Below are positions 259 through 40,700 of a DNA stretch of 64,000 nt, one piece after another (position 1 is the first letter of the stretch; the number at the start of each line of letters is the position of its first letter). Below the pieces are notes generated by a model, which saw only the letters and a program-made list of their open reading frames with translations, made no database searches and was not told where the DNA came from. A program made the position numbers and the translations under genes. Origin of the DNA: Candidatus Heimdallarchaeum aukensis (GTDB lineage: Archaea > Asgardarchaeota > Heimdallarchaeia > Heimdallarchaeales > Heimdallarchaeaceae); assembly GCA_021513695.1 (NCBI GenBank), contig CP084166.1:32001-96000 (forward strand), written 5' to 3'.

Positions 259-3147
259 ATGGCTATCAAAACCAAAAAAAACTCCACAAAGAAGAATTTA
301 ATTACTGTTTTTGTAATTTTCTTGGTTTGTTTTAGTTTTATAAATTGTTTAACCTCTAACTTGTTAACTGTAGTAGCTTCAGGAAGCGGAGATTTTCCAC
401 CTCCAAGTAGTGGAGAATGGACAATATCTCAAGAAACAATAGTTAATTCTGAAGTTATTTATATTAATGATTCAGTTTCAATAGAAAGTGGAGGATCTTT
501 AGTATTAGAAAATTGTGTAATAGAAATGAATGGTAATGAAGATGACAAAGCTAATTTTATAGTTAATAATAATGGTAATCTTACAATAATTAATTCTAAA
601 ATAGAAGCTTTTTCTGATTATTCATGGTACATCGAAGCAGAAGAAGGAGCTTCACTTAAAATTACTGACTCAACCCTAATAAACTTCAAAGGAAGCCAAT
701 ATACATCAGTAATTACACTCTATAACAATTATTCTGAAATTACAAACAATAGTATCTCAAACTTCAAATATAAAGCCATTTTTGCTAGATTTACTAGTCA
801 TCATAATAATATTACAAAAAACAAAATAAGTGGAGGGCTTGTTGGTTTTGAAGTAGTCGATGGATGGTACAACGAGATAAATGATAATGAGTTTCACTTA
901 CTATCACAATTTGCGATTGCTATTAATAATGGTAGTTTTTCAAATATTCTTCGAAATAAAATATTTAATGTTTCTTCTATCGCAATCAATTTCCAAAAAT
1001 CAAAGAATGTTTTATGCAATAACAACAATATTTCTACGTCTAAAACTGCAATTGAGTGCTATTCAATCTATAATAGTAGTATCTCTAATAATATGTTCTC
1101 TAATATTCATGATTATTCAATTAGAGTATATACAGGGAATAATGTCACAATATCAAACAATTCAATTGATAATAGCGATTTAGCAAAAGGCATTATTAAT
1201 TCAGCTATTAGCCTGAGTGCGTGTAATAATTTTTCTATTAATGAAAATTCAATAATAAATACCCCAAGAACAGCTCTAGAAATTTTAAGTTCAACAAATT
1301 GTAGAATTTTTAACAATGTTTTTTCCATTAATAATTACTCTATCTTTATCTCTAGTTCTAATTATCTTGAAATTAAAAACAATTTACTATCTTATTCGAA
1401 TGATTATTCTATGTGGTTTATTAAATCAGATTTTTCATTGTTTGAAAACAACACAGTTAATTTTGGTCAATCTTGTGGAATTAGACTAAGTAGCTGTAAC
1501 AATAATTCTATATTAAGGAACATCATATTCAATAATAGTAAATATGGTATCGATATTTCTTCAAGTAATAATAATACGATACTGGAAAATGTTTTTGTTT
1601 TAAACAATAATGGTTCTATTCAAGCTTATGATAATGGATTAAATAATAGCTGGTATAGTAATTTAGAATCTGTTGGTAATTTTTGGAGTGATAATAATGG
1701 ATCATCTTTCTATTTAATAAATGGTGAATCAGGTTCTATGGATATTTTTGCGAATTATTCTGATTACGATAAAGATTTTATTCCTGATTATTATGAACTT
1801 GAAGTTGGTTTAGATATAACAATAAATGATGCTAATGACGACTTAGATGGGGATGGTTTGTCAAACTTCGAAGAATTTACTCTGGGTACTTTTCCTAATG
1901 ATCCTGATAGCGATGATGATGGTTTAATTGATTCAGTAGAAGTAGACTTGAAAACTGATCCTATGTCTAATGATACAGACAATGACAACCTTATTGATGG
2001 GTTAGAAATTCAATATGGATGTGACCCCTTTTCAAATGATACAGACATGGATGGACTAGATGACTGGTCAGAGATATTCTACTACTTCACTGACCCTTTA
2101 GATTATGACACTGATGGTGATGGGTTATCTGACTCTGATGAAGTTTATGCATATAATACAGACCCATTGGACGCTGACACTGATGATGATGGCTTAAATG
2201 ATGTAACTGAAGTACTAGGTTATGGTACTGATCCCAATGATGCAGATACAGATGGAGATGGATTAACAGATTACGAAGAAGTGATTGAATATTTTACTGA
2301 TCCTACGGATGTTGATACTGATGGTGATGGTTTAACAGATTATGAAGAGGTAAAATATTATGGAACAAATCCTAGGAAAGCTGACACTGATGGTGATGGA
2401 ATTTCTGACAATGATGAATTAATTCAAGGAAAAGATCCATTAGTCAATGAGAAACAAAGAAATGTAAGGATAATAATTATTGTATTTTCTGCTTTAGGTT
2501 CTGGTATACTGTTTATAGGATTAACTGTGCTGTTGATACTATTCCTGATAGAAAAGAACAAAAATAAAGAACAAGCATTGTTATCCCTTTTCAAGAAAAA
2601 AATTAGAGAACTAGAAAAGAAAATTAATATTATTGAAACAACAAAAATTGAAGAACTTATGTCTAAGACAGAAGAAAGAGCGAAAATTGATACTTTTTTC
2701 AATGAATTCCTTGAGGTTTTAGTGGACTTCGCAACATATTTTCTGGAAAATGAGGAATTAATTGAGAATAAAAAATGGTTACAAGCCAAAAAGAAGCTAA
2801 ATGAAGAATTAGATAAAGTGAGAGATTGGATTAATAAAAATCTACGTGCTCTAAAGGAATATGATATTTATGACAAACTAGTAAACCAGATAGATGGATT
2901 AGAAAATAAAGAAGAAATTAAGATTAGCAAGTTAGAAGCTTATAAGGAGATTGAAATTGCAAAAGGTATTTTGAGAGAATTCAAAAAAGTAGTAGAGAAA
3001 ACTTCTCCTTTTATCAACAAATTTTCCTATTCTACTTTAACTAAATATTGGGAGATTACAACTGAACTTATATTTGCTAATATGACACAGCTAGAAAAAA
3101 TTGAGGAAAAAATAAAAGATCTACTGGAAAGAGAGAAAACTCTATAA
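259..3147 (+). CDS. Type I membrane surface protein. It has an N-terminal signal/anchor, right-handed parallel beta-helix repeats, a thrombospondin type-3 (TSP3) Ca-binding repeat array, a TM helix and a roughly 195-aa cytoplasmic coiled-coil tail.
   Basis: - Hydrophobic N-terminus: [18 protein letters not shown].
- Many approximately 22-aa N/I/S-rich repeats (..I.NN.IS.....I....S.NN.I.NN) typical of PbH1/NosD-type beta-helices.
- At least 10 DxDxDGLxDxxE motifs at DNA 1830-2440.
- TM segment [27 protein letters not shown] (2466-2550).
- K/E-rich heptad-like tail (2551-3144).
- SD-like AGGTGG at 239-244. Confidence 0.8.
1830..2440 (+). repeat. In-frame TSP3-type Ca-binding repeat array within CDS 259..3147.
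   Basis: Reiterated DxDxDGLxDxxE codon blocks (gat..gat..gat gg. tta ..). Confidence 0.8.
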
Positions 3148-3497: not shown

Positions 3498-6400
3498 TTA
3501 TTTTCTAGATCTATTTGTTTTTATTGCAAGAATGGTCAAGCCTAAGAGTCCTAGAACGAAATAGAGGAAACTGAATGGATTTTTGGTTGTAGTCTCTTCT
3601 GGATGACTGTTTGAGTCAATAGGGTTAAAACCATTAGACGCTTCGTATCCATCAGTCCAACCATCTCCATCAGTGTCATTATTATGAGGATCAGTATTCC
3701 AATAGAATTCATCTCTATTAGTTAAACCATCTTCATCAGGATCTTCATTAGCATCATCTACTAAAGGATCTAAGTTGTTGTCTACTTCCCAACCATCAGG
3801 CATACCATCATCGTCGGTATCACTGTCAGTAGGGTCGGTGTTATTTGTATATTCTCCTAGATTTGATAAACCATCACTGTCTTTATCATCAGACCCATCA
3901 TCTGTTAATGGGTTTAATTCATATTTTAGTTCCCATCCATCGTCCATTCCATCTCCATCAGTATCTGCGTCAGTGCTTTGAGTGCCTAAAACTACATCTT
4001 CAAGGATATCATCTAAACCGTCTCCATCTATATCAGTTCCACTTATTGGATAAAGATCGACTGAAGAAGCCGTTCCTTGAATATTGGTATAAGTTCCTGT
4101 TGTTCCATTGTAGTCTGACCAATAGTTACCTACTTTTATTTCATCATTATACCATAGATTATTTGACCCATCATCTATAGCTAAAGTAATTTGGTCAAAG
4201 AATAAATAAGAAGCTGAAACGAAATAATTTTGATAGATTAGAGCATTAGAAATCGTAGAAGATAGTGAGATTAAGCAATAAATTTGCCTAATTTCTCCAT
4301 TAATATCAATTATGTCGAATATTTTATTGTACGTAATAATTGCTCCATCAATATCTCCATCTAAACGAATCCCTGCATTAGATACCGTGTTTTCTATGAT
4401 ATTTATAACATTTCTAGTAATCTCGAGATTTTCCCATTGTCCACGAATGTATATTCCTATAGTTCCTCCAGAATTTATTTCATTGTTGTCTATAACAAAA
4501 TTATTTCCTCCATCATTGGCGAAATAAATACCACTGTAAGATGATCCTAGATTTGTTGTTATTTGGTTATATGAGATAGTTATATTGTTGAAGATATTAC
4601 CACTAGCAACATAAATTCCTTTATTACAGTTGCTTATTTGGCTATTAGTTATTATTACATTGTCTACTTTTCTAGCATAATCAGCATAAAGTTCAATTCC
4701 TGAATCTACATTGGAGATGATGGTGTTATTTATTATTAAGCCGTCTGCGGCATAGACATCAATAGCGATTTCTTCATAATTTGATATTATTACATTTTTT
4801 ATTGTAAGATTTTCACTATCAAAAATATATATTGCTTTTGTTGATGTACCATCATGTAAATTTAGGTCTTCAAGAAAAACATTTTTTGAAGTATCAATAC
4901 TTATACTTCCATGTTCAATCTCTGCATTTACAAAAGTAATATTGGTAACTTCGTAAAAGTTTGAGGTACCTGAAAGGGTGTTACTTGTTATTTCGAAATT
5001 ACTAGAATAAGAAATGTAAAACGAGGTATTGGATGACAATATAGCATTATTTGTTATTTCTGTGAACTTTTCTGGCAGATTTGCAATAGTAAAAGCTCTA
5101 TCTACATTTTCAATATAATTGTTGGTAATGTATGTATTTCCTTCCAAAGCGTTACCATAAGAGGAAGTTATTGTGAAAACTTTTTCTGAATCTGAAATAT
5201 CGTTATTATCAAAAGTGACATTACCCACGTAAATTAGATCAAAAGCGGTATTATTAGCGTCTACTATCTCATTATTCACTATTGTAATATTATCATTTAT
5301 TACATAATTTGTGTTATATTTTTTATTTATATCAAGACCGTAAGATACACCTTCTATTATGTTATCTTTAAAAGTCAGAGTAATATTTGCAGTAGTAGAA
5401 TAATCTAAACACATTCCTTTATTTGCTTCATTAATAGTATTTCCTGTCACATTTAATGATTTCGTGTCATATACTATAATTCCATTATAGGCGTTGATAA
5501 ACTCGTTAGAAATTATAATTATTTCTTCATCAGCATATTGATCAATAGGATTCATAATATAAATCGCATTATCGTAAATATTTTCGAAACCGTTACCGGA
5601 AACAGTAATACTTTTTGAATCTTTAATTAAAATTCCTAAATCTGTATTTGATATAGAAAGTGATTTAATGTTAATATTAGTACAATCAATTAGAAATATC
5701 TGACCATAAATGTTAGTGTCAATATTTTTCGTATCGTTGCTAACAAAATAACCTACTTCTTTATTATTTACTTTGTTTCCCTTTACTATTATTGTATTAG
5801 CTTTTTCTTTAAGTGGTGCTAAAAACATCCCATCATTTACTAAAGTATTATTAACAATCTCAATAGTATCTGTTGTTTCCTTAGCAAGATAGATTCCATA
5901 TCCTTTATTTGACTCTATTGAATTATTTGCTATTATTTCATCATTTGATCCACCATTAATTAACAATCCAATATCATCGTTATTATTTATTGAATTATTT
6001 GCAATAGTAATAAAGTCTCCAGTAATATCTATACCTTTATTGTTGAATGAACAGTTATTTCCAGTTATAATTACGTTGTTTGAACCAGTTGAATAAATCC
6101 CTGCGTTACTATTAGATGAACAGGTATTATTTGCAATTATTGCGTTATTAACACCGTAAATGTTTATTCCATTATTACTTCCTGTTATGGTATTATTTAT
6201 TATCTTCTGACTATTAGTCATATAAACATTAATTCCATCTTCATTTCCACTTACAGTGTTTGATTCAATAGTTGCGATTCCATCAGCCACAGATACAATA
6301 TATATTCCCTTTCTAGATGCTTCAATAGAACAATTGACTATCTTAAAGTAAGCTGTTACGCTTAAACTATGAATATAAATTCCATAGTCTGATGATGTCT

Positions 6401-6614
6401 GTATTTTTAAGTTACTGATTATGTAAGGATCGTCTACTGTACCTGCTCCATCAACAACACCATTAGCTGAAGTAAAATCACTATCTGAAGCAATTACTAT
6501 TGGGTCATGTGTTGTGTATATTTTCAGTTTAGACTGTACGTTATTTAAACTTACAATCAATCCACTGCTAATTACAAGCATTATTAAAAACAATGATTTA
6601 TAGTTTTTCATCAA
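3498..6614 (-). CDS. Surface protein with a signal peptide, a long parallel beta-helix repeat region, TSP3 repeats and a C-terminal TM anchor.
   Basis: - N-terminal signal: MMKNYKSLFLIMLVISSGLIVSL.
- Dozens of beta-helix repeats (NN.I..N..GI.....SNN.I.NN.).
- DxDxDGxxDxxE motifs near the C-terminus (DNA about 3640-4030).
- C-terminal FSFLYFVLGLLGLTILAIKTNRSRK anchor. Confidence 0.8.
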   Translation of the reverse strand: MMKNYKSLFLIMLVISSGLIVSLNNVQSKLKIYTTHDPIVIASDSDFTSANGVVDGAGTVDDPYIISNLKIQTSSDYGIYIHSLSVTAYFKIVNCSIEASRKGIYIVSVADGIATIESNTVSGNEDGINVYMTNSQKIINNTITGSNNGINIYGVNNAIIANNTCSSNSNAGIYSTGSNNVIITGNNCSFNNKGIDITGDFITIANNSINNNDDIGLLINGGSNDEIIANNSIESNKGYGIYLAKETTDTIEIVNNTLVNDGMFLAPLKEKANTIIVKGNKVNNKEVGYFVSNDTKNIDTNIYGQIFLIDCTNINIKSLSISNTDLGILIKDSKSITVSGNGFENIYDNAIYIMNPIDQYADEEIIIISNEFINAYNGIIVYDTKSLNVTGNTINEANKGMCLDYSTTANITLTFKDNIIEGVSYGLDINKKYNTNYVINDNITIVNNEIVDANNTAFDLIYVGNVTFDNNDISDSEKVFTITSSYGNALEGNTYITNNYIENVDRAFTIANLPEKFTEITNNAILSSNTSFYISYSSNFEITSNTLSGTSNFYEVTNITFVNAEIEHGSISIDTSKNVFLEDLNLHDGTSTKAIYIFDSENLTIKNVIISNYEEIAIDVYAADGLIINNTIISNVDSGIELYADYARKVDNVIITNSQISNCNKGIYVASGNIFNNITISYNQITTNLGSSYSGIYFANDGGNNFVIDNNEINSGGTIGIYIRGQWENLEITRNVINIIENTVSNAGIRLDGDIDGAIITYNKIFDIIDINGEIRQIYCLISLSSTISNALIYQNYFVSASYLFFDQITLAIDDGSNNLWYNDEIKVGNYWSDYNGTTGTYTNIQGTASSVDLYPISGTDIDGDGLDDILEDVVLGTQSTDADTDGDGMDDGWELKYELNPLTDDGSDDKDSDGLSNLGEYTNNTDPTDSDTDDDGMPDGWEVDNNLDPLVDDANEDPDEDGLTNRDEFYWNTDPHNNDTDGDGWTDGYEASNGFNPIDSNSHPEETTTKNPFSFLYFVLGLLGLTILAIKTNRSRK

Positions 6615-6910: not shown

Positions 6911-7594
6911 ATGATAAAAATGAATATTGAGGGAATTGATTTTCACTGGTTAGGACACGATAGTTTTCTTATCCAAGCCAAAGGTAAGAATATCTATATT
7001 GATCCTTATAAATTAACAAAAAAAGATCTTCCAGAAGCTGATATAATAATCACAACACATGATCATTTTGATCATTGTAATCCAGAAGCTATCGAACAGA
7101 TATGTGGTGAAAAAACTATTTTAGTTGGTCCTAAAGTAACAATAGATAAACTCAATGATATCTCCAAAAAGAAAAAGGTAATTGAACTTAATCCTTATGA
7201 TGAAAAGGAAATTGATGGAATAAAAATTAGTGCAATTCCTGCTTATAACACTCACCGTTTCCGTGATCCAGAAACAAAAACACCTTTTCATCCCAAGGAA
7301 TCAGGACATATAGGACCTATTATTGATGTTGATGGTGTAAAAATTTATCACGCTGGAGATACAGATAAAATACCAGAAATGGAGGACTTAAAGCCACATA
7401 TTGCATTAATTCCAGTTAGTGGTACATACGTAATGGATGTTCCAGAAGCAGTTGAAGCTGCAAAAGTAATTAGTGCTAAAATAACTATCCCAATGCATGT
7501 TGGAAGGGGAATTGGAGAATTATCTTATAGAGAAGAATTTAAAGAAAAACTTGAAAACATGGAAGTAATCCTCTTAGATTTAGAAGAAAGTTAG
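6911..7594 (+). CDS. Metallo-beta-lactamase-fold hydrolase (UPF0173-like).
   Basis: ITTHDHFDH matches the HxHxDH zinc motif. Later YHAGDT and PMH motifs are present. The roughly 225-aa size is typical. Confidence 0.7.
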   Translation: MIKMNIEGIDFHWLGHDSFLIQAKGKNIYIDPYKLTKKDLPEADIIITTHDHFDHCNPEAIEQICGEKTILVGPKVTIDKLNDISKKKKVIELNPYDEKEIDGIKISAIPAYNTHRFRDPETKTPFHPKESGHIGPIIDVDGVKIYHAGDTDKIPEMEDLKPHIALIPVSGTYVMDVPEAVEAAKVISAKITIPMHVGRGIGELSYREEFKEKLENMEVILLDLEES

Positions 7595-7680: not shown

Positions 7681-9105
7681 ATGGATGATTATGTGACAGT
7701 AGTAGATAAAAATGTTGAACCTACTAAAATTGAGGCTAAAAGAACTCATTTCGGTAATGTTTTTCTATGGTCTTCCTATGATGCTGCTGATACTCTTTTT
7801 TCTCAAGGAATAATTAGTATTGTTTTTCAACCCTTTGTTTTATTATTAGCTTATGAACAAGGTATAACTAATTATTGGACTGCTTTTGCTTTAATGTCAG
7901 CATTTATGGCTTTTTCAAACTTACTTGTAGCTATTTTTGGTCCAATAATTGGATCTATTAGTGATACGATAGGAAAACGAAAATCTGCCGTTCTTATTTC
8001 AGCATCATTAATGGTTATTTCGACACTAGCTTTCCTCATTTGGAGGAACTTTTGGTGGCTTTCAATAATGTTCGTTTTTGCTAACTTTGGTTATCAAGCA
8101 GGACGAATGTTTTACGATTCAATGATACCTTTCATTTCAAAAACAGATCAAAGAGGAATAACATCTGGTATTTCTGGTTCTCTTAGTTTTATTGGGACTT
8201 TTGCTGCCATTGGATTGGCTCAAGTAGCTTATTCAATATGGGGTAAGTTCTCAGAACCTGGAAAGGTATTTGAAGAAGGTGCATCAATAAGTTATACAAG
8301 CTTAGAATGGTTGACTGTTATAGTTATAGCAGGAATATTAGTTTTTACGATACCCTTTCTATTTTCAAAAGAAAAAGAGAATCCAAATTCATTTTCCTTC
8401 AAACAGAACTTAAAACAAGCTAGACTTGAATTTAAAGACACTTTGAAAGAGATTTTCAAGTACAAGAACGCTTTATTGTTTATTTTGGGTTGGTTTTTTG
8501 TAACTGATGCAAGTAATACTACAATTTTATACATGCAACTTGTAATGATTGATGGTGTAGGAGCTGATCCTGGTCAAGCATTAATGATTATTGCAATGGG
8601 TGGACTTTTATCAATGATTGGAGCAATTATTGTAGGTGTGCTTTTAGATAAACTTGGACCAAAGAAAAATTTCATTATCAACATATTCGCTTGGTTTATT
8701 GCAGTAAGTATAGCTATTATTGCATGTATTGAGGTAGATGGAAAACACATCGTTCCTTGGCAAATAATGTTCTTAGTTGGATTCTTTATTGGAATAGGAT
8801 TCGGAGGAATATGGCTTATCGGAAGACAATTTGTTTTTGAAGTTGCTCCTCCGAAGAAAGTTACTCAATATCAAGGATTTAAACAAATTGCAGGAAGAGT
8901 AAGCGCCATTATAAGCCCAATTATGTTCTTGTTGATGCTTGGTTTAGGTGCTAAACTTGGTTTGAGTATTTCCAATCAATATGCAATTGCTCTTGCTCCT
9001 CTCTTAATATTCTTTACAATTGGACTAATAATTGTTCTAAAATATGTTGATGTTCATAAAGAATATCTAGCTGGAGAAAGAGCTCCATATAAGAAATTAC
9101 AATAA
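7681..9105 (+). CDS. MFS transporter (UMF1/Atg22-like).
   Basis: About 12 hydrophobic helices. GPIIGSISDTIGKRK is an MFS loop 2-3 motif. A central hydrophilic loop is present. Confidence 0.6.
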   Translation: MDDYVTVVDKNVEPTKIEAKRTHFGNVFLWSSYDAADTLFSQGIISIVFQPFVLLLAYEQGITNYWTAFALMSAFMAFSNLLVAIFGPIIGSISDTIGKRKSAVLISASLMVISTLAFLIWRNFWWLSIMFVFANFGYQAGRMFYDSMIPFISKTDQRGITSGISGSLSFIGTFAAIGLAQVAYSIWGKFSEPGKVFEEGASISYTSLEWLTVIVIAGILVFTIPFLFSKEKENPNSFSFKQNLKQARLEFKDTLKEIFKYKNALLFILGWFFVTDASNTTILYMQLVMIDGVGADPGQALMIIAMGGLLSMIGAIIVGVLLDKLGPKKNFIINIFAWFIAVSIAIIACIEVDGKHIVPWQIMFLVGFFIGIGFGGIWLIGRQFVFEVAPPKKVTQYQGFKQIAGRVSAIISPIMFLLMLGLGAKLGLSISNQYAIALAPLLIFFTIGLIIVLKYVDVHKEYLAGERAPYKKLQ

Positions 9106-9233
9106 TAATCTAAACCCCTTCTTTTTTTCTTTAATTTTAATTACTTTTTTCTATAGTTAAAAGATTAGGATAAGAAAATAACGTAGATTGTTTACTATTT
9201 AAAATTAGAAAAAATATGTATTTTTAAATTAAA

Positions 9234-10496
9234 TTATTTATATTCACGAATAACTGGTAGAGTAACTACGCTTTCTATCCATGGTAATTTAGCTATAGAT
9301 TTCCTTATCAAGTTGTAAGCTTTTCCAATATTTCTTAATCTTATTGAAATTATTAAATCATAAACTCCTGAAGTATAAGCGACAGATTCTATACCCCTTA
9401 TTTGAGATAATTTTTCTAAATCGATTTTCTCTCCAATTTTTATTTTAGCAAAGATCAATCCTCTAGTTTCAGACATAGATAAGGTAACTACACCTATTAA
9501 AATAAGGATCGAACCTGATATTTTAAGGATTATACCTACTATATCATTTCCTCCTGAACTGAATATTGCTGGAAACCAAATTGCAAAAATAGCTGCCAAA
9601 GGATAAGTGGAGATAACGCTTATACTGTTTAAAGCTCTTACAATAGACATCTTCCCCATCGTAAGTGCTCTAGTGTAAGCAATTACACCAAGATAAACCA
9701 ATAACATTGAGCAAATTACAGGAACTAAAGAGGGTCTCCAATTTTCTTTTATCTCATTAAAACCTACTCTGTAGATACTAGGAAGCGATGCTATTACTTG
9801 CCCTGCTGTCATAATAAAAAGTGTCCATATTCTTAGACTTAGCGTATCTATCTTTCTTCCTTTATCATTTTTTGTTACTAAAGCTTTCTTTTGAAAAACA
9901 GTATATAATGCCGAAAATAAAGCAAATGGACCAAAGATAAGTAAAATACCTATAGCATCTAATTTTCCACCAGAAATTGTAGAAATCATTACTCCTACAG
10001 CTATCATTGTAATTGATTGGATTTCAATTGCAACAGGTTTTTCTCTTTCTGAAATAGAATCAGCAATAAGCAAGTAAACGAGAACAAATTGGCTAAATGG
10101 CATTATTAGAGATGCATCATACTTTTCTAAAAGAACAAAATAGAGTATAGTGTTTCCTGTAGCAAAAAGACCAGCAAGAAGGGTATATAGTAAAACTTTG
10201 CCTTTAGGAAACATTATTCCTTGAAAATTAGGGTCAAAATAGTAACCCAGAGTTTTCTTAAATTCTTTATCTTTGTTTGGTAGAGGAATAGAAAGAATAA
10301 GTATAAGAATTATTGACACTATTAAACCTACAACCATCTCATATGCTCCAAAAAGATAAGGATCAGTAATGAAACTGTTGCCAATTGCATCTAGTACTAC
10401 CCACAGGCTAGTGATTAAACCAGATCCCAAGGCTAGTAGATAAAACGTACTTTTTCTTCTAATTTTACTAAATTCTCTATGGGCTGCAATTGACAT
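9234..10496 (-). CDS. DMT/EamA-like 10-TM membrane protein fused to a C-terminal Lrp/AsnC-type ligand-binding (RAM) domain.
   Basis: The N-terminal roughly 340 aa are polytopic. The C-terminal roughly 75 aa (KIKIGEKIDLEKLSQIRGIESVAYTSGVYDLIISIRLRNIGKAYNLIRKSIAKLPWIESVVTLPVIREYK) follow the AsnC_trans_reg pattern (..V.....tG.yDl...v...d......l...l..l.gV..t.t..v). Confidence 0.6.
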   Translation of the reverse strand: MSIAAHREFSKIRRKSTFYLLALGSGLITSLWVVLDAIGNSFITDPYLFGAYEMVVGLIVSIILILILSIPLPNKDKEFKKTLGYYFDPNFQGIMFPKGKVLLYTLLAGLFATGNTILYFVLLEKYDASLIMPFSQFVLVYLLIADSISEREKPVAIEIQSITMIAVGVMISTISGGKLDAIGILLIFGPFALFSALYTVFQKKALVTKNDKGRKIDTLSLRIWTLFIMTAGQVIASLPSIYRVGFNEIKENWRPSLVPVICSMLLVYLGVIAYTRALTMGKMSIVRALNSISVISTYPLAAIFAIWFPAIFSSGGNDIVGIILKISGSILILIGVVTLSMSETRGLIFAKIKIGEKIDLEKLSQIRGIESVAYTSGVYDLIISIRLRNIGKAYNLIRKSIAKLPWIESVVTLPVIREYK

Positions 10497-10508
10497 ATAA
10501 AACTCTCC

Positions 10509-10760
10509 TTATTCTTCTCCAATTATTTCTTTCTCTACAATACAAGTTTGTGTACTTTCAAGACCTGGGATGAGATGTATGCACTCTGAAGTAATGTTGT
10601 AAAGTTCTTCTAAATCTTTAACTTTGATAGTAGCAACAATGTCCCACTCACCAGTAACAACAGCACAACTTGTTATCGCATGAATTTTTCTTAATTCATT
10701 GACCACTTCTTGAGTCTTACCTAATTTTACTGTCATAAGAATATATGCTGTGATTATCAT
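10509..10760 (-). CDS. Stand-alone Lrp/AsnC ligand-binding (RAM) domain protein with no HTH.
   Basis: The 83-aa protein contains AYILMTVKLGKTQEVVNELRKIHAITSCAVVTGEWDIVATIKVKDLEELYNITSECIHLIPGLESTQTCIV, which is the canonical RAM pattern. Confidence 0.7.
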   Translation of the reverse strand: MIITAYILMTVKLGKTQEVVNELRKIHAITSCAVVTGEWDIVATIKVKDLEELYNITSECIHLIPGLESTQTCIVEKEIIGEE

Positions 10761-10898
10761 TAAATTTTCAAAAGACTTTTTACCCTAAAAATCTTACTTT
10801 CATTTACGAAGATAAAAATATTTTAGCCTTTATTCTTCAGAAAAAGAGTCTTCGTTATACCAATAATTACAAATATATCTAATTCTGGAGTATTTCAT

Positions 10899-12053
10899 AT
10901 GATTAATAAAAGAAAAAAAATATTGATGCTTGTTTTGAGTACAGTTAACCCCGATGTCAGAGTAGAAAAAGAAGCAAGATATTTGGCATCAAAAAATTTT
11001 GATGTTTCTGTTATTGGAATAACAAGACCAAGTTTAGATTTACCAAAAAAAGAAGAAAGAGATGGTTATACTATATATAGAGTTGAAATCAAGAAAAAAT
11101 TATTTTTCAAGTATTTTGAATTTTATCGTAAAGTAAAGAAACTTGTTGGTTCTGAAGTATATGATTATATCCATTTCCATGACCTAAATGCTTTACCAGC
11201 TATTTCTAAATTAAAGAAAAATGGAAAAATATTTGTTTATGATTCTCATGAAAACTTCCCAGAACAAATGTCTGAAACTTTTGGTTTACCCGCTCAAATA
11301 GTTTATACTTGGGTAGAACGACATTTCATCAAAAAAGTTGATTATGTTTTTACACCAGGAAAGACTTATTCAAATTTACTTGAGAAAAAATACAAAGTTA
11401 AAGCTTCAGTTATTTCTAACTATCCTTCAAAAGAGGATGTAGATAAAGGCCATGAGATTGAAATTCCTAAAGAGTTAGAAAAAAAAGCCAGATTTCGAGT
11501 AGTCTATTTTGGAGTAATGTATGCAAATTTAGGATACGATGTTACAGTAGAAGTAGCAAAACTTATACGAGATCATTATAATTTGAAGCCTTCAGATATA
11601 GATTTTCTCATAATAGGTGACGGTTCTGCATATGAACCAATGAAAAAGATGATAGAAGAAGAAAAGCTCTCTCCTTATTTTATTCTAACAGGATGGATGG
11701 ATTATCATTTAGCACTTTCTGTGTTAAGAACAAGTGATGTAGGACTCATTCTCTTCCAACCAGGAAAAAACAATTTTAGGCGAATTCCTAATAGACTATA
11801 TGAGTATTTTTCAGCTGGGGTTCCTTTTATTGGTTCAGATTTTGAAGGATTAAGAGAAGGAGCAAAGTATGATAAACAACTAGGTTTCTTTGTTAATCCT
11901 CAGTCTCCAGAAAAAATAGCAGAGAGAATAATTAAATTGTTTAAAGATACAAAAACGTTAGAACAACTAAAGAAAAACGCTGAAGAAGCATACAAAACTA
12001 GATTTAATTGGGAAACTGAAATAAAGAAAATAGATAAAATCTATAAAAAGTAA
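10899..12053 (+). CDS. Glycosyltransferase (GT-B fold, GT4-like).
   Basis: Size and layout fit the family. A C-terminal EYFSAGVPFIGSDFEGLRE motif (E-x7-E-like) is present. The N-terminal Rossmann half has an HFHD motif. Confidence 0.65.
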   Translation: MINKRKKILMLVLSTVNPDVRVEKEARYLASKNFDVSVIGITRPSLDLPKKEERDGYTIYRVEIKKKLFFKYFEFYRKVKKLVGSEVYDYIHFHDLNALPAISKLKKNGKIFVYDSHENFPEQMSETFGLPAQIVYTWVERHFIKKVDYVFTPGKTYSNLLEKKYKVKASVISNYPSKEDVDKGHEIEIPKELEKKARFRVVYFGVMYANLGYDVTVEVAKLIRDHYNLKPSDIDFLIIGDGSAYEPMKKMIEEEKLSPYFILTGWMDYHLALSVLRTSDVGLILFQPGKNNFRRIPNRLYEYFSAGVPFIGSDFEGLREGAKYDKQLGFFVNPQSPEKIAERIIKLFKDTKTLEQLKKNAEEAYKTRFNWETEIKKIDKIYKK

Positions 12054-12073: not shown

Positions 12074-12928
12074 TTAAAACCAACTTATTACATTGTATAT
12101 TTGTTCTTCTACATCTTTTACTTTATCACTTATTTCTGATACATCATTTATTGAATCGAAGAATTTGTTCAAAATGTTTCTTATTTTTTCTATACCATGT
12201 GCAATATCTTGATATTCAAAAGGATAAGCTAGAGCAACAATACAATAATCCTTACCTTCTAATCTCTTATCTAATTGATTTTTGTCTTTAACAATATATA
12301 GAAGACTTGTAGCATAATAGTCTCTCATTTTAGGGATTCTAACAGGCCCCGAGATTATGGATGAACTTTCAAGTTTATCTATCTCTCCCATTCCAAACAA
12401 AGTGTAAAGCATAACGCCCAAGGATAAAATGACTGTTTCTTTTATGTCTTCATATTCTTCTGGAATTCTGTTTACATATATAGGTTCAGTTCCAGAGGTT
12501 CCAAAACGATAAAAAGCTAAGAATATTTTGTTTTTATCATAACGAGATTTCTTTTTTTTGATGTTTTCAATAATTTCTGGTATTTTACTGAAAAATCTTC
12601 CTCTTTTCACAATATAATCTTGAGCGCCCATTTTCATAGCTTTGACAGCTACTTCTTCAGATCCTTGTCCTGTAATTATAAGGACAGGAATATCAGTTAT
12701 TTTTCTGATCTCTTCCAAAATGTCCAAACCTGTAATGTCTCCTAAAAGATAGTCTAGCAATATTATATCGAAGTCATATTTATATTCTTGAAGAATGTTT
12801 AATGCCTCTTCTTTTGTCTGAGTTATATGTACTTCTACATCATGAAAAGCCTTAATTATATTGATTTTGATAAGAAAGGCTATGTCACTGTCATCCTCCA
12901 CAAGTAGTACACGTAGATCATTAGACAT
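12074..12928 (-). CDS. Response regulator with a CheY-like receiver domain and a roughly 150-aa C-terminal alpha/beta domain of unknown family (longin/roadblock-like pattern).
   Basis: - Receiver motifs: LLVEDD, ILLDYLLGDITG (phospho-acceptor Asp), LIITGQG, KMGAQDYIVK.
- I prefer the ATG at 12928 (GAGGA 8-12 nt upstream) over the GTG at 12958.
- The C-terminal domain has no motif I can name. Confidence 0.75.
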   Translation of the reverse strand: MSNDLRVLLVEDDSDIAFLIKINIIKAFHDVEVHITQTKEEALNILQEYKYDFDIILLDYLLGDITGLDILEEIRKITDIPVLIITGQGSEEVAVKAMKMGAQDYIVKRGRFFSKIPEIIENIKKKKSRYDKNKIFLAFYRFGTSGTEPIYVNRIPEEYEDIKETVILSLGVMLYTLFGMGEIDKLESSSIISGPVRIPKMRDYYATSLLYIVKDKNQLDKRLEGKDYCIVALAYPFEYQDIAHGIEKIRNILNKFFDSINDVSEISDKVKDVEEQIYNVISWF

Positions 12929-13100
12929 TGTTTGTTCCTCGAAGTATAAGAAATACACTTTCTTTCCTTTATAATAAAATATAAATTATAAGTTTTAACA
13001 TTTGTGGAATTTCTCATGTATTATGATTCTTTTTTTTGTAGTATGCTTCTAATCTTATGCAAAAGTGAAAGTTTTAATACTTTTTTTATTAATGAAGGCT

Positions 13101-13261: not shown

Positions 13262-14227
13262 TTAATGTTCAATAAATTCTTTCTCGCTTATAACTTTACA
13301 TGTTAATGTTTTAGCAGCAAAAGGTATGAAACTTTTTTCTAGCTCCTTTTTAACCTTTTCAAAAATCAAATAGCGATTTTCTTCACTTGTTAGATCCAAA
13401 GTAATGATTTCAGTTAAATTTTCTATTAATGTAAGCAAAGGACCTTTTTCTATTAGTACATACTCTGTTGTTACTAATAAAGCAATGTTATGATAACTAA
13501 TAAACAGTAGTTTATATTCCTCAAAGTTAATTTCTTCCATTGAACTAAGTTGTTTTTTGTTTGTTGAATTTAGCCACTTATTCTCATAAGCACTAATTAT
13601 GTTCTTAACTTTTTCTCTGGTTCTTGTATTATCGTGTATATGAAGATTAACTCCGTCTTTTTTAATGAAAATATCTACCGATAAAATGTTTGGCATTAAT
13701 CCTGTTTTTTTACTAACCAACTTGCTTATTAACCAATTCATCGCATCGCTTATGTATTCGCCTGTTTTGACTGAAATGAAAAAGAATCGAAAACTCATCT
13801 GACTTTCAATTGAAATTAATTTGTTAAGTTCAAATCCTTTAACAATTTCTTCAATAACTCTTTCTTTTTCTGTAATTAAGTCCATCTTATTACCTAGAAA
13901 AAGCACTGGTATATCTTTGTTTTTTATCCATTCTAAAATAGTATAGAACCATTCTTTACTTTCTGGTAAACTTTCTAAATTTGAAGCGTCAAAAATGAAA
14001 ATTAAAGCAGAGGAAAGATTAATGTAATTTTTCCAAATGTGCTTTCTGAATGCTTGGTGTCCCCCCATATCCCAAATTTGAAGGGGAAAACCTTGGTACT
14101 CGGTAAATTCTACATCAACACCTAAAGTCGGAGGAGAAGAAACAAAGGTTCCCGATAGTAACCTTTGGGTAAAGCTAGATTTTCCGGCTTGTGGAAGGCC
14201 AGTTATAGCAATAGAGAATCTTGTCAT
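13262..14227 (-). CDS. Small GTPase of the Arf/Rag-like class with a roughly 140-aa C-terminal alpha/beta extension.
   Basis: - G1: GLPQAGKSS.
- G3: WDMGGHQ (compare Arf WDVGGQ and Rag WDCGGQ).
- G4: GNKMD.
- The ATG at 14227 is preferred over the GTG at 14251 because it places the P-loop about 10 aa from the N-terminus. Confidence 0.8.
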   Translation of the reverse strand: MTRFSIAITGLPQAGKSSFTQRLLSGTFVSSPPTLGVDVEFTEYQGFPLQIWDMGGHQAFRKHIWKNYINLSSALIFIFDASNLESLPESKEWFYTILEWIKNKDIPVLFLGNKMDLITEKERVIEEIVKGFELNKLISIESQMSFRFFFISVKTGEYISDAMNWLISKLVSKKTGLMPNILSVDIFIKKDGVNLHIHDNTRTREKVKNIISAYENKWLNSTNKKQLSSMEEINFEEYKLLFISYHNIALLVTTEYVLIEKGPLLTLIENLTEIITLDLTSEENRYLIFEKVKKELEKSFIPFAAKTLTCKVISEKEFIEH

Positions 14228-14376
14228 TTTTGAGTTCACTTCAATTAGCACTAAAAACTATCTTTAATTTGTTATAAAAGTTTAGTTATTTATAATAGTA
14301 GTTCAATTAATTCTTTAAAATTCTAAATTTATCATGTTAAAGAGAACATATAATTGAAAAATAAAAAATCATAATT

Positions 14377-34543: not shown

Positions 34544-34709
34544 ACATGATTTTTAAACTTTAAATTTGACTGCTAAAAATGCAACTTTTCAAGGCTTGTA
34601 GTACATTTTATATATTAATTATCGTATAGTACTCTTTAGAGTTCTGGGATTGGAATTGGGGCTATTATTTCCTGGAGTAAGTAATTGAAAATTGAAAAGA
34701 AGTGTAAAA

Positions 34710-37700
34710 ATGAAAAAAAGTAAAATTAAAGTTATTTCTATTATCGCTATTTTTCTTCTCATCTTGAACGTCTCGACGATATACGTTCAAGGTCAGATGG
34801 TAGGTAATGAAACTAAATTAATGATGACTGGAAATCCTACAGAAGTTTATGAAGATCAGATAGCGATTCTGTATGATCCATTTAATGATATGACAAGAGA
34901 ACTAGCAAATTCGATTTATGAGACTGTTCATATGTTTTATTCTAACGTGAAAATGGTCAAAGTTTTCAATTTAGATTCATTTAACAGAGCTTTTTATGAT
35001 GATGATTGGATTAAAATCTATGTTTTCGACTCTGACTTAAAAGGAATAAAATTTGCTGGTTGGACAATGTCATGGAGAAAACTAACTGGATACTACAATG
35101 TTTTCAAAGATACAAGGCACATTGGAGTTTATGGAAACTCATACAAGATGGGTCCATATCTTAAGACTGAAAACTGTTATATAGAAAATACAGAGATTCT
35201 AGATTATCGTATTGCTTACATTCATGTATTGTGGTCATTATATGATATTTTTACAGAAAAAGAAGATGAAATTCTTCAACAAATAGGAGAAAATTTCAAA
35301 TTAATAGCAATTAAATATTTTGGAGATTCATTTGAAGAAATAATGTCTGCCGAGTTTGATCCACAAGGATTAGGTGTTGTTGACCCAAAAAAGGCAGAAG
35401 AAAGATTACAAGATTCAATGGACCAATATCCAAAGAGATTAAATAAAGTTAATCCATATACGGGTGAGTTAGTTGATCCAACAGCAGAGATTGAAGGATT
35501 TAATCCTGTAATGGATATTAAACCCAAAGCAGCGATAGATGAAGATGACATTGTTTTAGGTGAGTTTCCGTTCTTATCTTCGATTCCTGGAGCTGCAGGT
35601 GACGTTATTAAAATAATTTTAGAGTTTATAGGTGTCGAGATACCAGAAGGTTTATTGACTGTAGGTAAAGAATATGGGGGGCAGATCGTCGCAATAATTA
35701 AAGAGATACCTAAAATTATTGGTTTCTTTAAGGATCCAAGTGCAAGTAGTGCTATTGAACTATTTTTTGATGTAGCAAAAGAAATGTTTCCCAGTATAGA
35801 AGAATATAAGCCCTACTTCGATATAGTAGTGAAAGCCCTATTTTCGATAAAAGATATTGCTTCAGGGGATCTTACTCCTTTAATTGATATATCAATGGAA
35901 CTTCTACGATTTATAATTCCTGATAGTGTAGGAGATTTTGTTGACGATGTTTTTGATGCTTTAAACATATCAAGTGCCCTTTCTGATATTATTAGTGGAG
36001 TTACTAATGTTGGTGATTATCTTAAGAGTTTTCTCAATAGGCAACTAATTACAAATTTAATGAAGAAATTTATTGAACAGACTTTAGATCTAGGGGGAGA
36101 ATCCCAAAAATGGATAGATACCATTTCAGAGATTATTATGATTGCTTATGAAATTGCCAGCACTCGAGATATGGATCACATAATAGCGGATGTCTTTCCA
36201 CGATTAGGAAAATTAGTTTACAAGAACATCTTAGATATGACCTATGATGAAAATGTAGAAAATACCTTCAAAGGAATTGCTGTTGCAATTAAGATGGGTT
36301 TTGGAGCTGCTGGAATCATTGATGTTAATCTTAAGGATTCATTTATGGATTTAATAGGCTTCTTCTTCCCTGACCTCGTTGAGACAGTTAATGATGTTAA
36401 ATTCTTTGTTTCAAGTATTAGGTCTCAAATTGATTCCTTTATGGATCTTGTTAAAGATGTTTCAGAAGGTAAAAATCTAGATGTAAACAACGTTCATGAC
36501 CAAATTATATCTTTAATTACTGAGCTTAGTTCATTATCAGGTCATTCTCTCGATGCAAATAAGATAAATGTACTCTCTCAAGCTGTTTTGATGGCTTTAG
36601 CTCTAATAAATGGTGATTTTGAAGCTTTAAGTGATACTAGCTGCCTAACAAGTCTAGTTGATGGATTTCTAGAACATTTTATTGGACTAGAAGAAGGTCC
36701 TAGAGAAATTGTACAAAAGGCAATAGAAGCTGGAGCAGCTATTTTACCTTTCATTACTGGGAAAAAGAGTTTGAAAAAATATATTATGGGAAGACTTGAA
36801 GATTTTGCTGACAAATTCAAGAATCCTGGAGAAATAATTGAAAAGGTTCTTTATTATTTCCTAAGCAAGTACAACGCAAGTACTCAACTTTACCAACTTA
36901 TTGGAAAAATTGTAGGAATAGTCATTGACATCTTTTCTGGAGGATTTGACTTTTCTGTTCAAAATGTTATTCAGACAATAATCTCAATGGCAGTTGTAGT
37001 TTTGAACATGTTAGATGTCAATATTCCGTTAGAAGCAATGTACAAGAGTTTTCAACTTCTATGGGAAGAGGGGCCAGAATTTTCCAATGTTGTAAAAGTA
37101 GTTCAAGATATTATGGGATTACTTGGAGGAAGCATTGACCCAACAATTAAAACTACTGTAGAAACAGTTCTTACTTTTCTAGGAGGAGCAAAGAATATCT
37201 TCAAAGATGGAATAAAATGGATAATGAACCAACTTGTAGGTTGGGCAGCAGGGCAGATTGCTAATTTATTAAATATGCTTACTGATAAATTAAATGAACT
37301 GTTCCAATCTCTTGGTGATTTGGTAAGTTATGATTCTGAATTCCCAATTGGTTTCGGAAGTTTTACTGCCTTCCAGATGCGAGTATTCTTCTCTTTAAGT
37401 CCTGGATTCGAAATTAACCCTGAACCAATTCAAGAGCTCATTATGAGTATGATTTTTGATGGGTCAAAGGTTTTTGATCTCGATAATATCGGAGAATTGT
37501 TTAAGCTTATCTTAAAATCAATTTCAATTATTCCTATTTTCAAAGCTGGACTTGAAATCAAAGCAGGAACGTCTGGAAAGAACGACTTAATGAAGATGCT
37601 CCTTGATTCTCTTGGTCTGGAACTTTCATTCTCTGGCTCTGCAGGACTAACACTGCAATTAATGAAGATTTCTAATGGTAAAATAAGTACTAGTGATTTC

Positions 37701-40700
37701 TTCAAAGTAATAGAATTCTTCTTTAAATTCCAGATATCAATAGCTAAAACATTCCCATTAGCAGAATTTCTAGGTCCAGGAGGAGCAGTTTTAGCTAAAG
37801 TTGCAGAATTCTTAGGTTTAGGTGGAATTTACCTAAAGATAGAGTTCTTTATAGCAATAGAAATTGTTAAACGATGTGAGACACCTACTCAGAAGGCTGC
37901 AGATATTTTAACAATTGTAATAGGAATAGGTGTTTCTGTAATTATTGATATCGACTTGGTAATTGTTGGAATAAAAATAACTATAGGTTTTGTAGTGACG
38001 CTGACGTTTATCCAGGACTTCTTGGCGGACGCACCGCTGCAAGTGATACTCGAGATAGAGTTCACTGTAGCGGTGAAACTGACGTTCTTGTTCGTCGACT
38101 GGACAGGAACAGCGTCATGGGGTCCAGATCCAATTTATCTGGCAGGAGGACCGGATGATGAAAGCACAAAAGACGAAATGAGCGGCTTGGACGCAGATGG
38201 GGATGGGTTACCTGATTCATATGAGTTAGGAGTTCCAGGAATGAAAGTAGACAGCGATGACAGTGATGGAGACGGTTTATCAGACCAATTCGAAGTGAAA
38301 ACGAGTAAAACAGACCCTATCACTGCAGATTCTGACGATGATGGTCTAGATGATTACATGGAATATGAAGTCTTAAAGACCAATCCTCTACAAGTAGATA
38401 GTGACTATGATGGTTTAACTGACTATGAAGAAGTTGTTATCTATGGAACTGATCCTAATGCACAAGATACAGATGGTGATCAATTAGATGACTATTACGA
38501 AGTAAATACTGCATGGAATATCACTGGAATAACTCCAAGTGTAAGATTTGTTACAATTGGGGGAGTAGAGTATAAAGATCATACTGATCCTCTTAATCCT
38601 GATACTGATGGTGATGGACTTCTAGATGGACAAGAAGGAGAATTTGGGGCTTATTATGGACCAGAATTGTATAACACTTCAGACCCAAGTTGGGATCCCT
38701 ATCCAATATTCTACAATCAAGGATATACTCATCCATTAGATAATGATACCGATGATGATTCTTATAAACAATTAGCAAATGGAACTATAGCTCCAGATCG
38801 TCAGTTCTTAATCTATATGTCTGATAAGGTAGAAATAGATGGACAATGGGTTATTTTCATTGAAGATGATGAATTAATGGGTAGAGTAGTTAGAACTAAC
38901 CCAATTAACCCTGATACTGATGGTGATTCAGCAGTAATGGATAAATCTTGGAGAGGTGATGGGGCTCCTCTTGACTTTTTCCTGAAGTCTGATGGTTACG
39001 AACTCTGGTTAGATCCGCCGACAGACCCGAATGACGCGGATATGGACGATGATGGATTAATTGACGGTTTAGAGGGTTGGGGTAATAAGATCAGTAATCA
39101 TACTGATCCTCGTAATCCTGATACTGATGGTGATGGACTTGGAGACCTGCAAGATATTCTACTCGGTTCGGATCCTTTGAACCCTGATAGTGATATGGAT
39201 GGAATTCTAGATGGTGAGGAGTTCTTCAAGTATGGAACTAACCCCGCTTATGAAGATACAGATCATGATGGGCTTTTGGATGGTGAGGAAGTTTATCTAT
39301 TCCACACAAACCCTCTGGCGGTAGATAGCGATGGAGATGGGATAGATGATGGAATGGAGGTATTAGTTTATGGTTCAGACCCGATGGATGAAGATATGGA
39401 TAACGACGGTCTAACAGACTGGGAAGAGATTTTCTACTACTTTACCAATCCTAGAGATTACGACTCAGATGATGATGGTCTAAGTGATGCTATGGAGGTT
39501 TTAGATGAATATGCTATATACACTGACCCATTGAATTGGGACTCTGATAATGATTCAATCACATATCCTAATGAAAACGGAAATTATACTTTCCCACTTT
39601 CTGATGGAGATGAAGTACTAATTTACGGAACTGACCCATTGACAAGCGATACTGATGGAGATGGATTGCACGATTCGTTTGAACTATATCTTGGTTCAGG
39701 TTTAATTTACAACTTTACTCCTGTACCTTTGGATCCGTTATCTAACGATACTGATGGAGATGGAATATATGATGCAAATGAATACCACATTGCAAATGTC
39801 TCTAACATCATTTATCCTTATGTTAGTTTTATCATCACCCAACCTTACAATACTTCTCCAGTAGATCCAGACTCTGATGATGACGGGATTATCGATGGAG
39901 ACGAAGTCTATGTATATGGAACTATGCCAGATATGAAAGATACAGATGGAGATGGACTAGACGATTGGAGTGAACTTAATATTATGTATACTAACCCTCT
40001 GAGTTCGGATACGGACAATGACTATCTGACAGATTGGGAAGAATGGTATGCGGGTTTTGAACATCCAGGATATCTACTTGATCCTAACGACCCTGATTAT
40101 GATAATGATATGCTGCCAGATGGGCCAGAGTTACTACTTTACGGTTCTAATCCTAATAATGCCTATGAGATTGATCCAAGTTCAGGAAAAGTCGATGGTC
40201 TGTTGATGGATTGGGACCATGATGGTCTAGAAGATGGTTTAGAGTTCTTTGTATACAACACTAGTTATGTAGCAGGAGGAGGAGTCACCCAGCCAGATAG
40301 TGATAGAGATGGTTTGATGGATGGTGCAGAAGTATATGTTCATGGTACAGTCCCCACGAATTGGGATACTGACAATGATACATATAGTGATGGATTAGAA
40401 GTGATGTTAGGACTAGATCCTCTTACATATACAACAGAAGAGGAATTTATAGCAGCTCTATCTGCAAATCAAGATATGCTAGAAGCAGGAGTACTAGTTA
40501 TCTCACCAATAGAAGGTGGAATTTACTCTCCTTCTAACTATACTTTCATCCTCTATAACGTGACAGAACTACTGGGCGTACAATATCAAATGAAGAAGAA
40601 CAAACAAGATTTCGGAGACAACATGAGTATGTACTATGATGATGTTTCAAGGACGTGGATAACTCAAGGAGATTATATTGGACCTGGAGATTATATCGTC

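Follow-up and report, generated by a model that had tools for sequence, protein, structure and literature searches.

A DMT-fold membrane protein with a fused RAM domain and a co-encoded stand-alone RAM protein in Asgard and other archaea

Layout of the locus and domain structure of the two proteins

The stretch analyzed here (the window) comprises 64,000 nt of the genome of Candidatus Heimdallarchaeum aukensis (contig CP084166.1, positions 32,001 to 96,000) and has a guanine-plus-cytosine (GC) content of roughly 30%. Its minus strand carries two adjacent genes, one for a small protein that consists of a single RAM domain and one for a predicted membrane carrier of the DMT superfamily that ends in a second RAM domain, referred to below as the fusion. 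The features of the locus, in window coordinates, are as follows:

10761..10898, no strand: AT-rich intergenic region of 138 nt, the presumed promoter region of the two-gene operon (open reading frame (ORF) map, sequence)
10509..10760, minus strand: ORF of the small RAM-only gene, 83 aa, opening at the first start codon after a stop codon (ORF list)
10497..10508, minus strand: intercistronic spacer of 12 nt with a Shine-Dalgarno-like GGAG (sequence reading)
9234..10496, minus strand: ORF of the fusion gene, 420 aa (ORF list)
9474..10496, minus strand: DMT/EamA-fold membrane domain, aa 1-341, with ten predicted transmembrane (TM) helices and both ends predicted inside (Pfam, hydropathy, AlphaFold2 (AF2), Foldseek)
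9237..9473, minus strand: fused, predicted cytoplasmic RAM domain, aa 342-420 (Pfam, AF2, Foldseek, hhalign)
9234..9236, minus strand: TAA stop codon of the fusion gene (sequence reading)
about 9201-9233: candidate archaeal terminator, AT-rich and with an oligo-T run, after the fusion stop (by inspection only)

The small RAM gene lies upstream of the fusion gene on the same strand at a distance of exactly 12 nt, and the stop codon, gap and start codon between them read TAAGGAGAGTTTTATATG. The short spacer with its GGAG indicates that the two genes probably form a single operon with coupled translation. The 138-nt intergenic region is shared with a divergent glycosyltransferase gene (10899..12053, plus strand; Pfam).

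The 83-aa protein matches AsnC_trans_reg (PF01037) with 58 bits (cut-off 25) over aa 8-75 and has no other substantial match in Pfam. Among solved structures its best relatives are the FL11/PH1519 RAM domain (E 6e-10) and the stand-alone RAM proteins 2cvi, 2e1a, 2zbc and 2djw, and its full-length alignment to solved RAM structures predicts the same fold. Being 83 aa long with a single RAM domain, it fits the DM1/STS042-type class of stand-alone RAM proteins (75-90 aa). Neither of the two proteins has a helix-turn-helix (HTH) match in Pfam. The NCBIfam Lrp/AsnC models align to the small RAM protein by their C-terminal halves only, from about position 61 onward, and the small gene has no room for an HTH because its ORF opens at the first start past a stop. 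Membership of the Lrp/AsnC regulators was considered for both proteins and rejected, the N-terminal winged HTH being missing.

The 420-aa protein matches EamA (PF00892) in two stretches with 44.9 bits (cut-off 28.2), and hydropathy gives ten TM segments, namely: 18-38, 50-72, 100-123, 128-148, 156-175, 181-201, 222-241, 256-276, 290-312 and 319-342. Lys and Arg are concentrated in the N-terminus and in loops 2-3, 4-5, 6-7 and 8-9, with 20 such residues on the N-terminal side versus 5 on the opposite side; in a 29-member alignment of the family the means are 15.8 inside and 2.1 outside, and every member has an inside excess of at least 6. Because of this distribution, the positive-inside rule places both termini, and with them the RAM domain, in the predicted cytoplasm.

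An AF2 model of the fusion, built from a 27-sequence alignment (predicted local distance difference test score (pLDDT) 76.4, predicted TM-score (pTM) 0.71), was compared with the Protein Data Bank (PDB) by Foldseek. For aa 1 to about 340 the DMT fold is matched by TPT (5y78), LicB (7paf/7b0k), SLC35B1, a CMP-sialic acid transporter, Vrg4, YddG (5i20) and PfCRT, the top entries being 5y78, 7paf, 9i20, 6oh3, 5oge, 5i20 and 6ukj. These matches have E-values of 4e-6 to 3e-4 and target-normalized TM-scores of about 0.57-0.80, for a query that is a model of pLDDT 76. No solved chain spanning both the DMT and the RAM part was found in the Foldseek search of the PDB, and a profile search matched no solved DMT protein. 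Many homologues of the fusion also fall below the Pfam EamA threshold, and the DMT part is a very divergent clade. The membrane part is read as a 10-TM carrier of the DMT fold with a predicted transport function.

In the same model TM10 is a helix (319-340) that continues directly, with no linker, into the first RAM strand. The RAM domain follows as a full beta-alpha-beta-beta-alpha-beta unit over aa 342-416 (strand 342-352, helix 360-364, strands 369-374 and 381-389, helix 393-402 and strand 407-416). In Pfam it matches PF01037 with 30.0 bits (cut-off 25) over aa 361-418, starting at profile position 16. Alignment of the small RAM protein with 16 fused RAM domains by hhalign covers 76 columns (98.6% probability, 26% identity), and Foldseek matches the fused domain to the FL11 RAM (2znz_C) over 81 columns with a root-mean-square deviation of 2.7, with further matches to 2cyy, TTHA0845 (2djw) and E. 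coli Lrp (2gqq). From the 76-column alignment and the full unit of the model, the fused domain is a complete RAM that is divergent and not truncated, in spite of the late start of its Pfam match.

An earlier note on this DNA, made from its letters and ORFs, had described a DMT transporter fused to a RAM domain next to a RAM-only gene, and its coordinates, sizes, 12-nt spacing and orientation all agree with the ORF list. It had put the RAM domain at about 9237-9470, which hhalign and the AF2 model now set at 9237-9473. The 10-TM EamA-like description is confirmed by Pfam, hydropathy and Foldseek; the PF01037 score of the C-terminal segment is above the cut-off, as that of the 83-aa, RAM-only protein is; the Lys and Arg counts put the C-terminus inside, not outside the cell; and the view that no HTH is involved holds, given the Pfam result and the small ORF.

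Conservation of the gene pair and of candidate functional residues

A word-indexed search found 37 homologues of the fusion, all from Heimdallarchaeia. In an exhaustive search of 1.84 billion cluster representatives, a profile built from these 37 sequences then found just 175 matches at E <=1e-3. Among them are about 28 full-length fusions of 396-469 aa (clusters at 50% identity), which match the whole profile including the RAM domain at E <=1e-51, and two shorter fusions of 378 and 381 aa at E about 1e-30 to 1e-36. The DMT-only proteins, about 330-350 aa long, begin at E about 1e-21, after a gap in score, and the rest are short RAM-only proteins or fragments. None of the 175 matches is a full-length protein that lacks the RAM domain and scores in the range of the fusions, and the fusion appears as a discrete clade. 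A profile search with the fused RAM domains gave only 5 short matches.

All named members of the fusion family are archaeal. Within the Asgard archaea they come from Heimdallarchaeota, Hodarchaeales, Thor-, Hermod-, Odin-, Baldr- and Njordarchaeota and Asgardarchaeia; the non-Asgard sources are Thermoplasmatota (a 56-member cluster), a 'Thermoprotei archaeon', Woesearchaeota and Nanohaloarchaea, and a few of the metagenome-assembled genomes concerned are labelled Bathyarchaeia or Nitrososphaerota. The phyla include Thermoproteota and DPANN. A copy with 98% identity to the fusion of the window was found at locus L004 of Ca. Heimdallarchaeum endolithica PR6, a complete genome (CP084167.1). The small RAM protein is 100% identical to one recorded for Ca. 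Heimdallarchaeum aukensis, and both the GC content of the window and its Arf-family GTPase gene agree with a Heimdallarchaeum chromosome.

A small RAM gene is found directly upstream of the fusion, on the same strand, in 37 of the 37 loci whose upstream DNA is available. A tblastn search of 36 loci with the 83-aa protein found it in all 33 with upstream DNA, which are of the Asgard type; the other three lack a match, and each is cut off inside the transporter gene. Two loci from Thermoplasmatota (L037, L038) and two from Woesearchaeota (L039, L040) have the same pair with a 4-nt overlap of start and stop, and the spacing in homologous loci ranges from -4 to +38 nt. It should be noted that the locus scan used a Heimdall-centred alignment and so is biased towards Asgard genomes. 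Since the neighbours beyond the RAM genes vary while the pair persists, the unit of selection appears to be the RAM plus DMT-RAM pair, held together over phylum-level divergence, with transporter identity within the family falling to about 26%. The window contains no other RAM or DMT paralogue that we could find. At the one informative locus for the nearest DMT-only relatives (L041), a DMT plus RAM or Lrp neighbourhood is absent.

Several variants of the pair were also seen. In some distant Heimdall and Asgard loci a second small RAM ORF of about 80 aa lies directly downstream, overlapping the fusion or a few nt away from it, which gives a RAM / DMT-RAM / RAM triplet; its T-x-T motif (see below) is half-degenerate (M-R-T). 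The downstream ORFs are:

L027, 4266-4508: second small RAM ORF
L033, 1944-2186: second small RAM ORF
L030, 4248-4427: second small RAM ORF

A Heimdall subgroup of 460-466 aa (P0027-P0036; loci L003 and L020-L026) has a Lys/Arg/Ser-rich insertion of 30-35 aa in cytoplasmic loop 2-3, aligned at aa 76-80 of the window protein. In that subgroup's RAM domain I358 and W406 change together to Cys, possibly as a swap in packing, as a disulfide or as a metal site.

In the databases the family goes by 'EamA family transporter', 'Lrp/AsnC ligand binding domain-containing protein' or 'hypothetical protein', and it is thus catalogued under automatic names and uncharacterized. Names of the type 'Lrp/AsnC' or 'DNA-binding Lrp family transcriptional regulator' (NCBI/JGI) are attached to P0020, P0032, P0046, P0072, P0195-P0199 and P0238. 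For a membrane family with no HTH such names are a systematic misannotation, and dozens of entries called 'Lrp/AsnC family transcriptional regulator' are actually predicted membrane transporters.

In order to compare ligand-contact positions, all small and fused RAM sequences were aligned with FL11 and one DM1-type protein. In the Grp-Gln structure Asp102 of the G99-x-N101-D102 loop binds the amino group of the ligand, while Thr132 and Thr134, in the final strand of a subunit that belongs to the adjacent dimer, bind its carboxylate (PMC2504300). Both elements are retained almost universally across phyla in the upstream small RAMs, as TGE[YFW]D and T-x-T, and in the window protein the corresponding residues are G37, D40, T70 and T72. 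The sole exception is the Woesearchaeota small RAM, in which T-E-S replaces T-x-T; from Asgard archaea to Thermoplasmatota D40 and T70/T72 are kept. The fused RAMs retain G377 and D380, both invariant in the Heimdall alignment, in the pattern TG-x-[YH]-D. Their T-x-T is degenerate, the first Thr being replaced: it reads V410-V411-T412 here and, across the alignment, [VI][VIT][TS] or, in distant members, W/V-x-S. They also share conserved features that are absent from canonical RAMs, namely the S342-E343 junction, an R388-x-[IL]-G391-[KR] loop and a terminal K-E418-[YWF]. A small RAM with the full set of ligand elements next to a half-degenerate fused RAM is what would be expected if the two formed a fixed heteromer with only one kind of composite site remaining functional.

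Conservation in the membrane domain is highest towards the same side. The most conserved segment anywhere in the fusion protein is cytoplasmic loop 8-9 (aa 277-289, ALTMGKMSIVRAL), with a top-residue frequency of 0.88 in the Heimdall alignment and 0.69 across phyla, and the cross-phylum conservation score is 0.48 for cytoplasmic loops and 0.30 for external ones. Residues specific to the fusion were identified in an alignment of 14 fusions with their 26 nearest DMT-only relatives, which terminate 1-29 aa past TM10 and have no RAM domain. D36 (TM1) and D217 are common to both groups, which likely ties them to the transport chemistry of the broader clade. The positions conserved only where a RAM domain is present are E[KR]150-151...P154...E158, where TM5 begins on its cytoplasmic side, R222, where TM7 begins, and R276-A-L...G-K282-M-S284; among these, E158, R222 and K282 show little or no variation within the fusion clade and are unconserved at the aligned DMT-only positions. 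These charged, clade-specific residues facing the cytoplasm likely form a docking or transmission network for the RAM module.

Proposed mechanism, known systems and alternatives

We propose that the operon encodes a ligand-regulated secondary transporter in which a heteromer of the fused and the free RAM domain senses an amino-acid-like metabolite and gates transport, a reading to which we assign a probability of roughly 0.55. Starting from the observed architecture, topology, fold, gene-pair conservation and motif retention, we infer the RAM-RAM pairing, the binding of ligand and its coupling to transport, as well as the class of substrate and the direction of transport, along the following lines.

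RAM domains are obligate dimers formed by strand pairing between two subunits, and they frequently assemble further (PMC2995911). A RAM domain joined to TM10 with no linker could not easily pair with a second, equally fixed copy; a co-translated free RAM would solve this problem, which would explain the invariant operon. Most likely, the tethered RAM and the free 83-aa RAM pair as a heterodimer on the cytoplasmic face. The 1:1 heterodimer is the minimal form, and higher-order assembly of such heterodimers is possible; hetero-oligomers of RAM proteins have a precedent in DM1 with FL11 in vitro (PMC2995911). An amino-acid-like metabolite would bind at the RAM interfaces through G-x-x-D and T-x-T, the small subunit supplying the complete set of these elements. 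Binding would alter the RAM assembly, and the signal would reach the carrier by way of the rigid TM10 junction and of clade-specific residues conserved on the cytoplasmic side (E158, R222, R276 and K282 of the membrane domain; E343, R388 and E418 of the RAM domain), so as to bias its alternating-access cycle.

As to the sign of the effect, many characterized bacterial carriers of the DMT/EamA type are metabolite exporters. The EamA family has been linked to amino-acid metabolism (PMC8707732), and Lrp-type sensors typically turn on exporters when the substrate accumulates, as in Lrp-brnFE (PMC8140960) and in PA2577 with the EamA-like PA2576 (PMC8707732). Because DMT carriers are often exporters and Lrp sensors switch exporters on, we slightly favour feed-forward activation of an exporter upon accumulation of its substrate, following the logic of the YiiP C-terminal domain (CTD). 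Such substrate-activated export would be a transcription-free, post-translational version of the exporter circuit controlled by Lrp. Trans-inhibition of an importer, in the fashion of MetNI C2 and ModC, would be nearly as likely.

Several points weigh against this proposal. Transporters' cytoplasmic loops are generally more conserved than their external loops, so the loop conservation described above is only suggestive. The G-x-x-D element may be kept for structure alone, as a hairpin turn. In the Lrp octamer the ligand site sits between dimers, and a lone 1:1 heterodimer might not form one. The AF2 model of the fusion is of moderate quality (pLDDT 76). Finally, the genes beyond the pair are not conserved across loci, and because they vary they offer no independent clue to the substrate.

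The earlier note had likewise suggested a transporter gated allosterically by an intracellular amino acid or metabolite, possibly through hetero-oligomeric RAM rings. The comparative data strengthen the functional link that it drew between the two proteins, in that the pair occurs in 37 of 37 loci and the small RAM retains its ligand residues; gating by a hetero-oligomer would follow by inference, with a ring as one possible form. The Lrp octamer, known from structures of LrpA and FL11, is D4-symmetric and has its subunits arranged in two layers, upper and lower, so a ring of four dimers is geometrically conceivable. Four tethered RAMs would make up its membrane-proximal layer and four free RAMs its distal layer, and the ring would lie flat on the membrane and unite four DMT carriers in a cooperative assembly gated by the metabolite. 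In another version the free RAM would shuttle between such a ring and cytoplasmic Lrp regulators, and the transporter would double as a receptor that controls transcription. We regard this extension, ring or shuttle, as speculative and rather improbable; if true, it would be an undescribed mode of transporter regulation or signalling and would give stand-alone RAMs a function.

Other explanations of the conserved pair were weighed against a ligand-gated heteromer. The RAM pair could be a ligand-independent module for assembly or stability, which sets the oligomeric state of the carrier or protects it from degradation. RAM domains serve primarily for oligomerization, there are several Lrp-type proteins for which a lack of amino-acid binding has been predicted (PMC2995911), and the degenerate T-x-T of the fused RAM fits such a role; the retention of D40 and T70/T72 in the small RAM from Asgard archaea to Thermoplasmatota, however, is hard to explain without ligand binding, and we consider a pure scaffold unlikely. 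The same retained residues would also suit a cytoplasmic receptor or chaperone for the substrate, in which the RAM pair, attached directly through TM10 at the cytoplasmic mouth of the carrier, hands its ligand over as an inside-facing, non-allosteric binding protein; the YiiP CTD indeed has a metallochaperone-like fold (PMC10710835). However, no ligand-delivering RAM domain is known, and the solved structures show RAM ligands buried where subunits meet (PMC2504300), which makes this role quite improbable.

The strict co-encoding of the RAM pair is also what one would see if the transporter were a transceptor, its RAM domain binding or letting go of the free RAM, or of full-length Lrp regulators, depending on ligand or on the state of transport, and so altering the make-up of Lrp hetero-oligomers in the cytoplasm. 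Stand-alone DM1 and full-length FL11 form hetero-octamers in vitro (PMC2995911), and sequestration of GlnK at the membrane by AmtB is established (PMC10710835). However, the conserved module includes no HTH protein and none is encoded nearby within the window, the RAM pair persists in the reduced genomes of DPANN archaea, and the fused RAM is atypical and only 26% identical to the small one, which fits a dedicated partner better than promiscuous mixing; we hold this explanation to be doubtful. For the fusion as a product of mis-assembly or read-through beside an unrelated small RAM gene, all that can be cited is how common stand-alone RAM genes generally are in archaea. The same full-length architecture recurs across independent assemblies, complete genomes among them, in some 28 clusters at 50% identity, and the pair in 37 of 37 informative loci, so this explanation is effectively refuted, and an artefactual fusion was rejected outright.

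Compared with the Lrp/AsnC (feast/famine) regulators, such as Pyrococcus FL11/PH1519 and the Grp protein of S. tokodaii, the pair has in common the RAM effector and oligomerization domain and candidate G-x-x-D and T-x-T ligand elements, complete in the small RAM and partly degenerate in the fused one; it differs in having no N-terminal HTH, and hence no DNA binding in the manner of Lrp, and in the fusion of one of its RAM copies to a membrane carrier. The 83-aa protein corresponds in size and fold class to the stand-alone RAMs (P. horikoshii DM1, 2e1a/2z4p, and 2cvi; S. tokodaii STS042, 2zbc; T. thermophilus TTHA0845, 2djw), whose physiological role has been described as unclear ever since the first of their structures (PMC2995911), but it is locked in an operon with a RAM-bearing transporter in several phyla. 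The membrane part shares the ten helices and the 5+5 inverted repeat of DMT/EamA carriers (YddG 5i20, LicB 7paf, TPT 5y78 and the SLC35 nucleotide-sugar transporters), whereas the solved DMT chains matched by Foldseek never extend over the RAM region.

Parallels in regulation come from other families. MetNI C2, ModC and the CTD of YiiP/CzcD are also small C-terminal cytoplasmic domains of transporters, which dimerize and bind the cytoplasmic substrate at the interface; those of MetNI and ModC restrict transport and that of YiiP activates it (PMC10710835). There, however, the transporters belong to other families, the sensors to other folds or families, and the sensor homodimerizes between identical transporter subunits, whereas here a separate soluble paralogue is co-encoded. 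AmtB-GlnK is likewise a conserved gene pair, in which a small cytoplasmic protein that senses metabolites docks on a membrane transporter (PMC10710835), but GlnK is a pore-plugging PII trimer and AmtB has no fused PII, whereas here both partners bear RAM domains. Genetic pairing of a RAM sensor with an amino-acid exporter is seen in C. glutamicum Lrp-brnFE (PMC8140960), and with a DMT-type transporter in P. aeruginosa, where the Lrp/AsnC regulator PA2577 accompanies the EamA-like PA2576 (PMC8707732); both act transcriptionally through an HTH, whereas the sensor described here has none and is physically on the transporter.

In agreement with the earlier note, which knew of no characterized transporter-RAM fusion, the literature we searched contains no description of one. 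A 2023 review of post-translational transporter regulation mentions neither AsnC nor DMT (PMC10710835), and a survey of the Asgard transportome treats DME-family proteins as uncharacterized. Conceptually, the family belongs with transporters that carry plug-on allosteric domains, and it differs from them in the RAM domain, the DMT carrier and the obligate free paralogue.

The DMT superfamily is huge and includes the eukaryotic SLC35 family; to our knowledge, essentially no post-translational regulation has been characterized in it, and RAM domains are known almost only as effector modules of Lrp/AsnC transcription factors. If the proposed mechanism is true, the pair would be a first natural case of a plug-on allosteric domain in this superfamily, and the scheme in which Lrp senses and an exporter responds would be run without transcription, which may suit slow-growing archaea such as the Asgards. 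The conserved operon also offers a testable role for stand-alone RAMs, possibly as the soluble subunit of a membrane-tethered RAM sensor.

Neighbouring genes and other features of the window

Convergent with the fusion is an MFS transporter gene (7681-9105, plus strand), whose product also matches the Atg22 family of vacuolar amino-acid effluxers (80.8 bits), and adjoining it is a gene for a metallo-beta-lactamase-fold protein (6911-7594, plus strand). In locus L001 the same metallo-beta-lactamase gene is kept and an AstE/AspA-family gene takes the MFS position. Other Heimdall loci have AstE/AspA-family or MacB/FtsX genes near the pair, in Thermoplasmatota an M29 aminopeptidase gene follows the fusion, and in Woesearchaeota a methyltransferase gene is a neighbour. 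Several of these variable neighbours give weak hints of amino-acid or peptide metabolism, and none is conserved.

The window also contains two adjoining minus-strand genes, namely:

13262-14251, minus strand: Arf-family small GTPase (99 bits) with a C-terminal extension of about 150 aa that has no Pfam match
12074-12958, minus strand: receiver-domain protein with about 170 C-terminal aa that have no assignment

A receiver-domain gene is also found near the pair in L001. Elsewhere in the window there are several long ORFs. Two proteins of about 1000 aa (259-3147, plus strand; 3498-6614, minus strand) have beta-helix, NosD and TSP3 matches, and two giant ORFs abut each other on the plus strand (34692-40913, 2073 aa with TSP3; 40913-48922, 2669 aa with FG-GAP repeats); all are probably surface or adhesion proteins. 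Within the first giant ORF the GC content rises to about 0.40, versus about 0.30 elsewhere.

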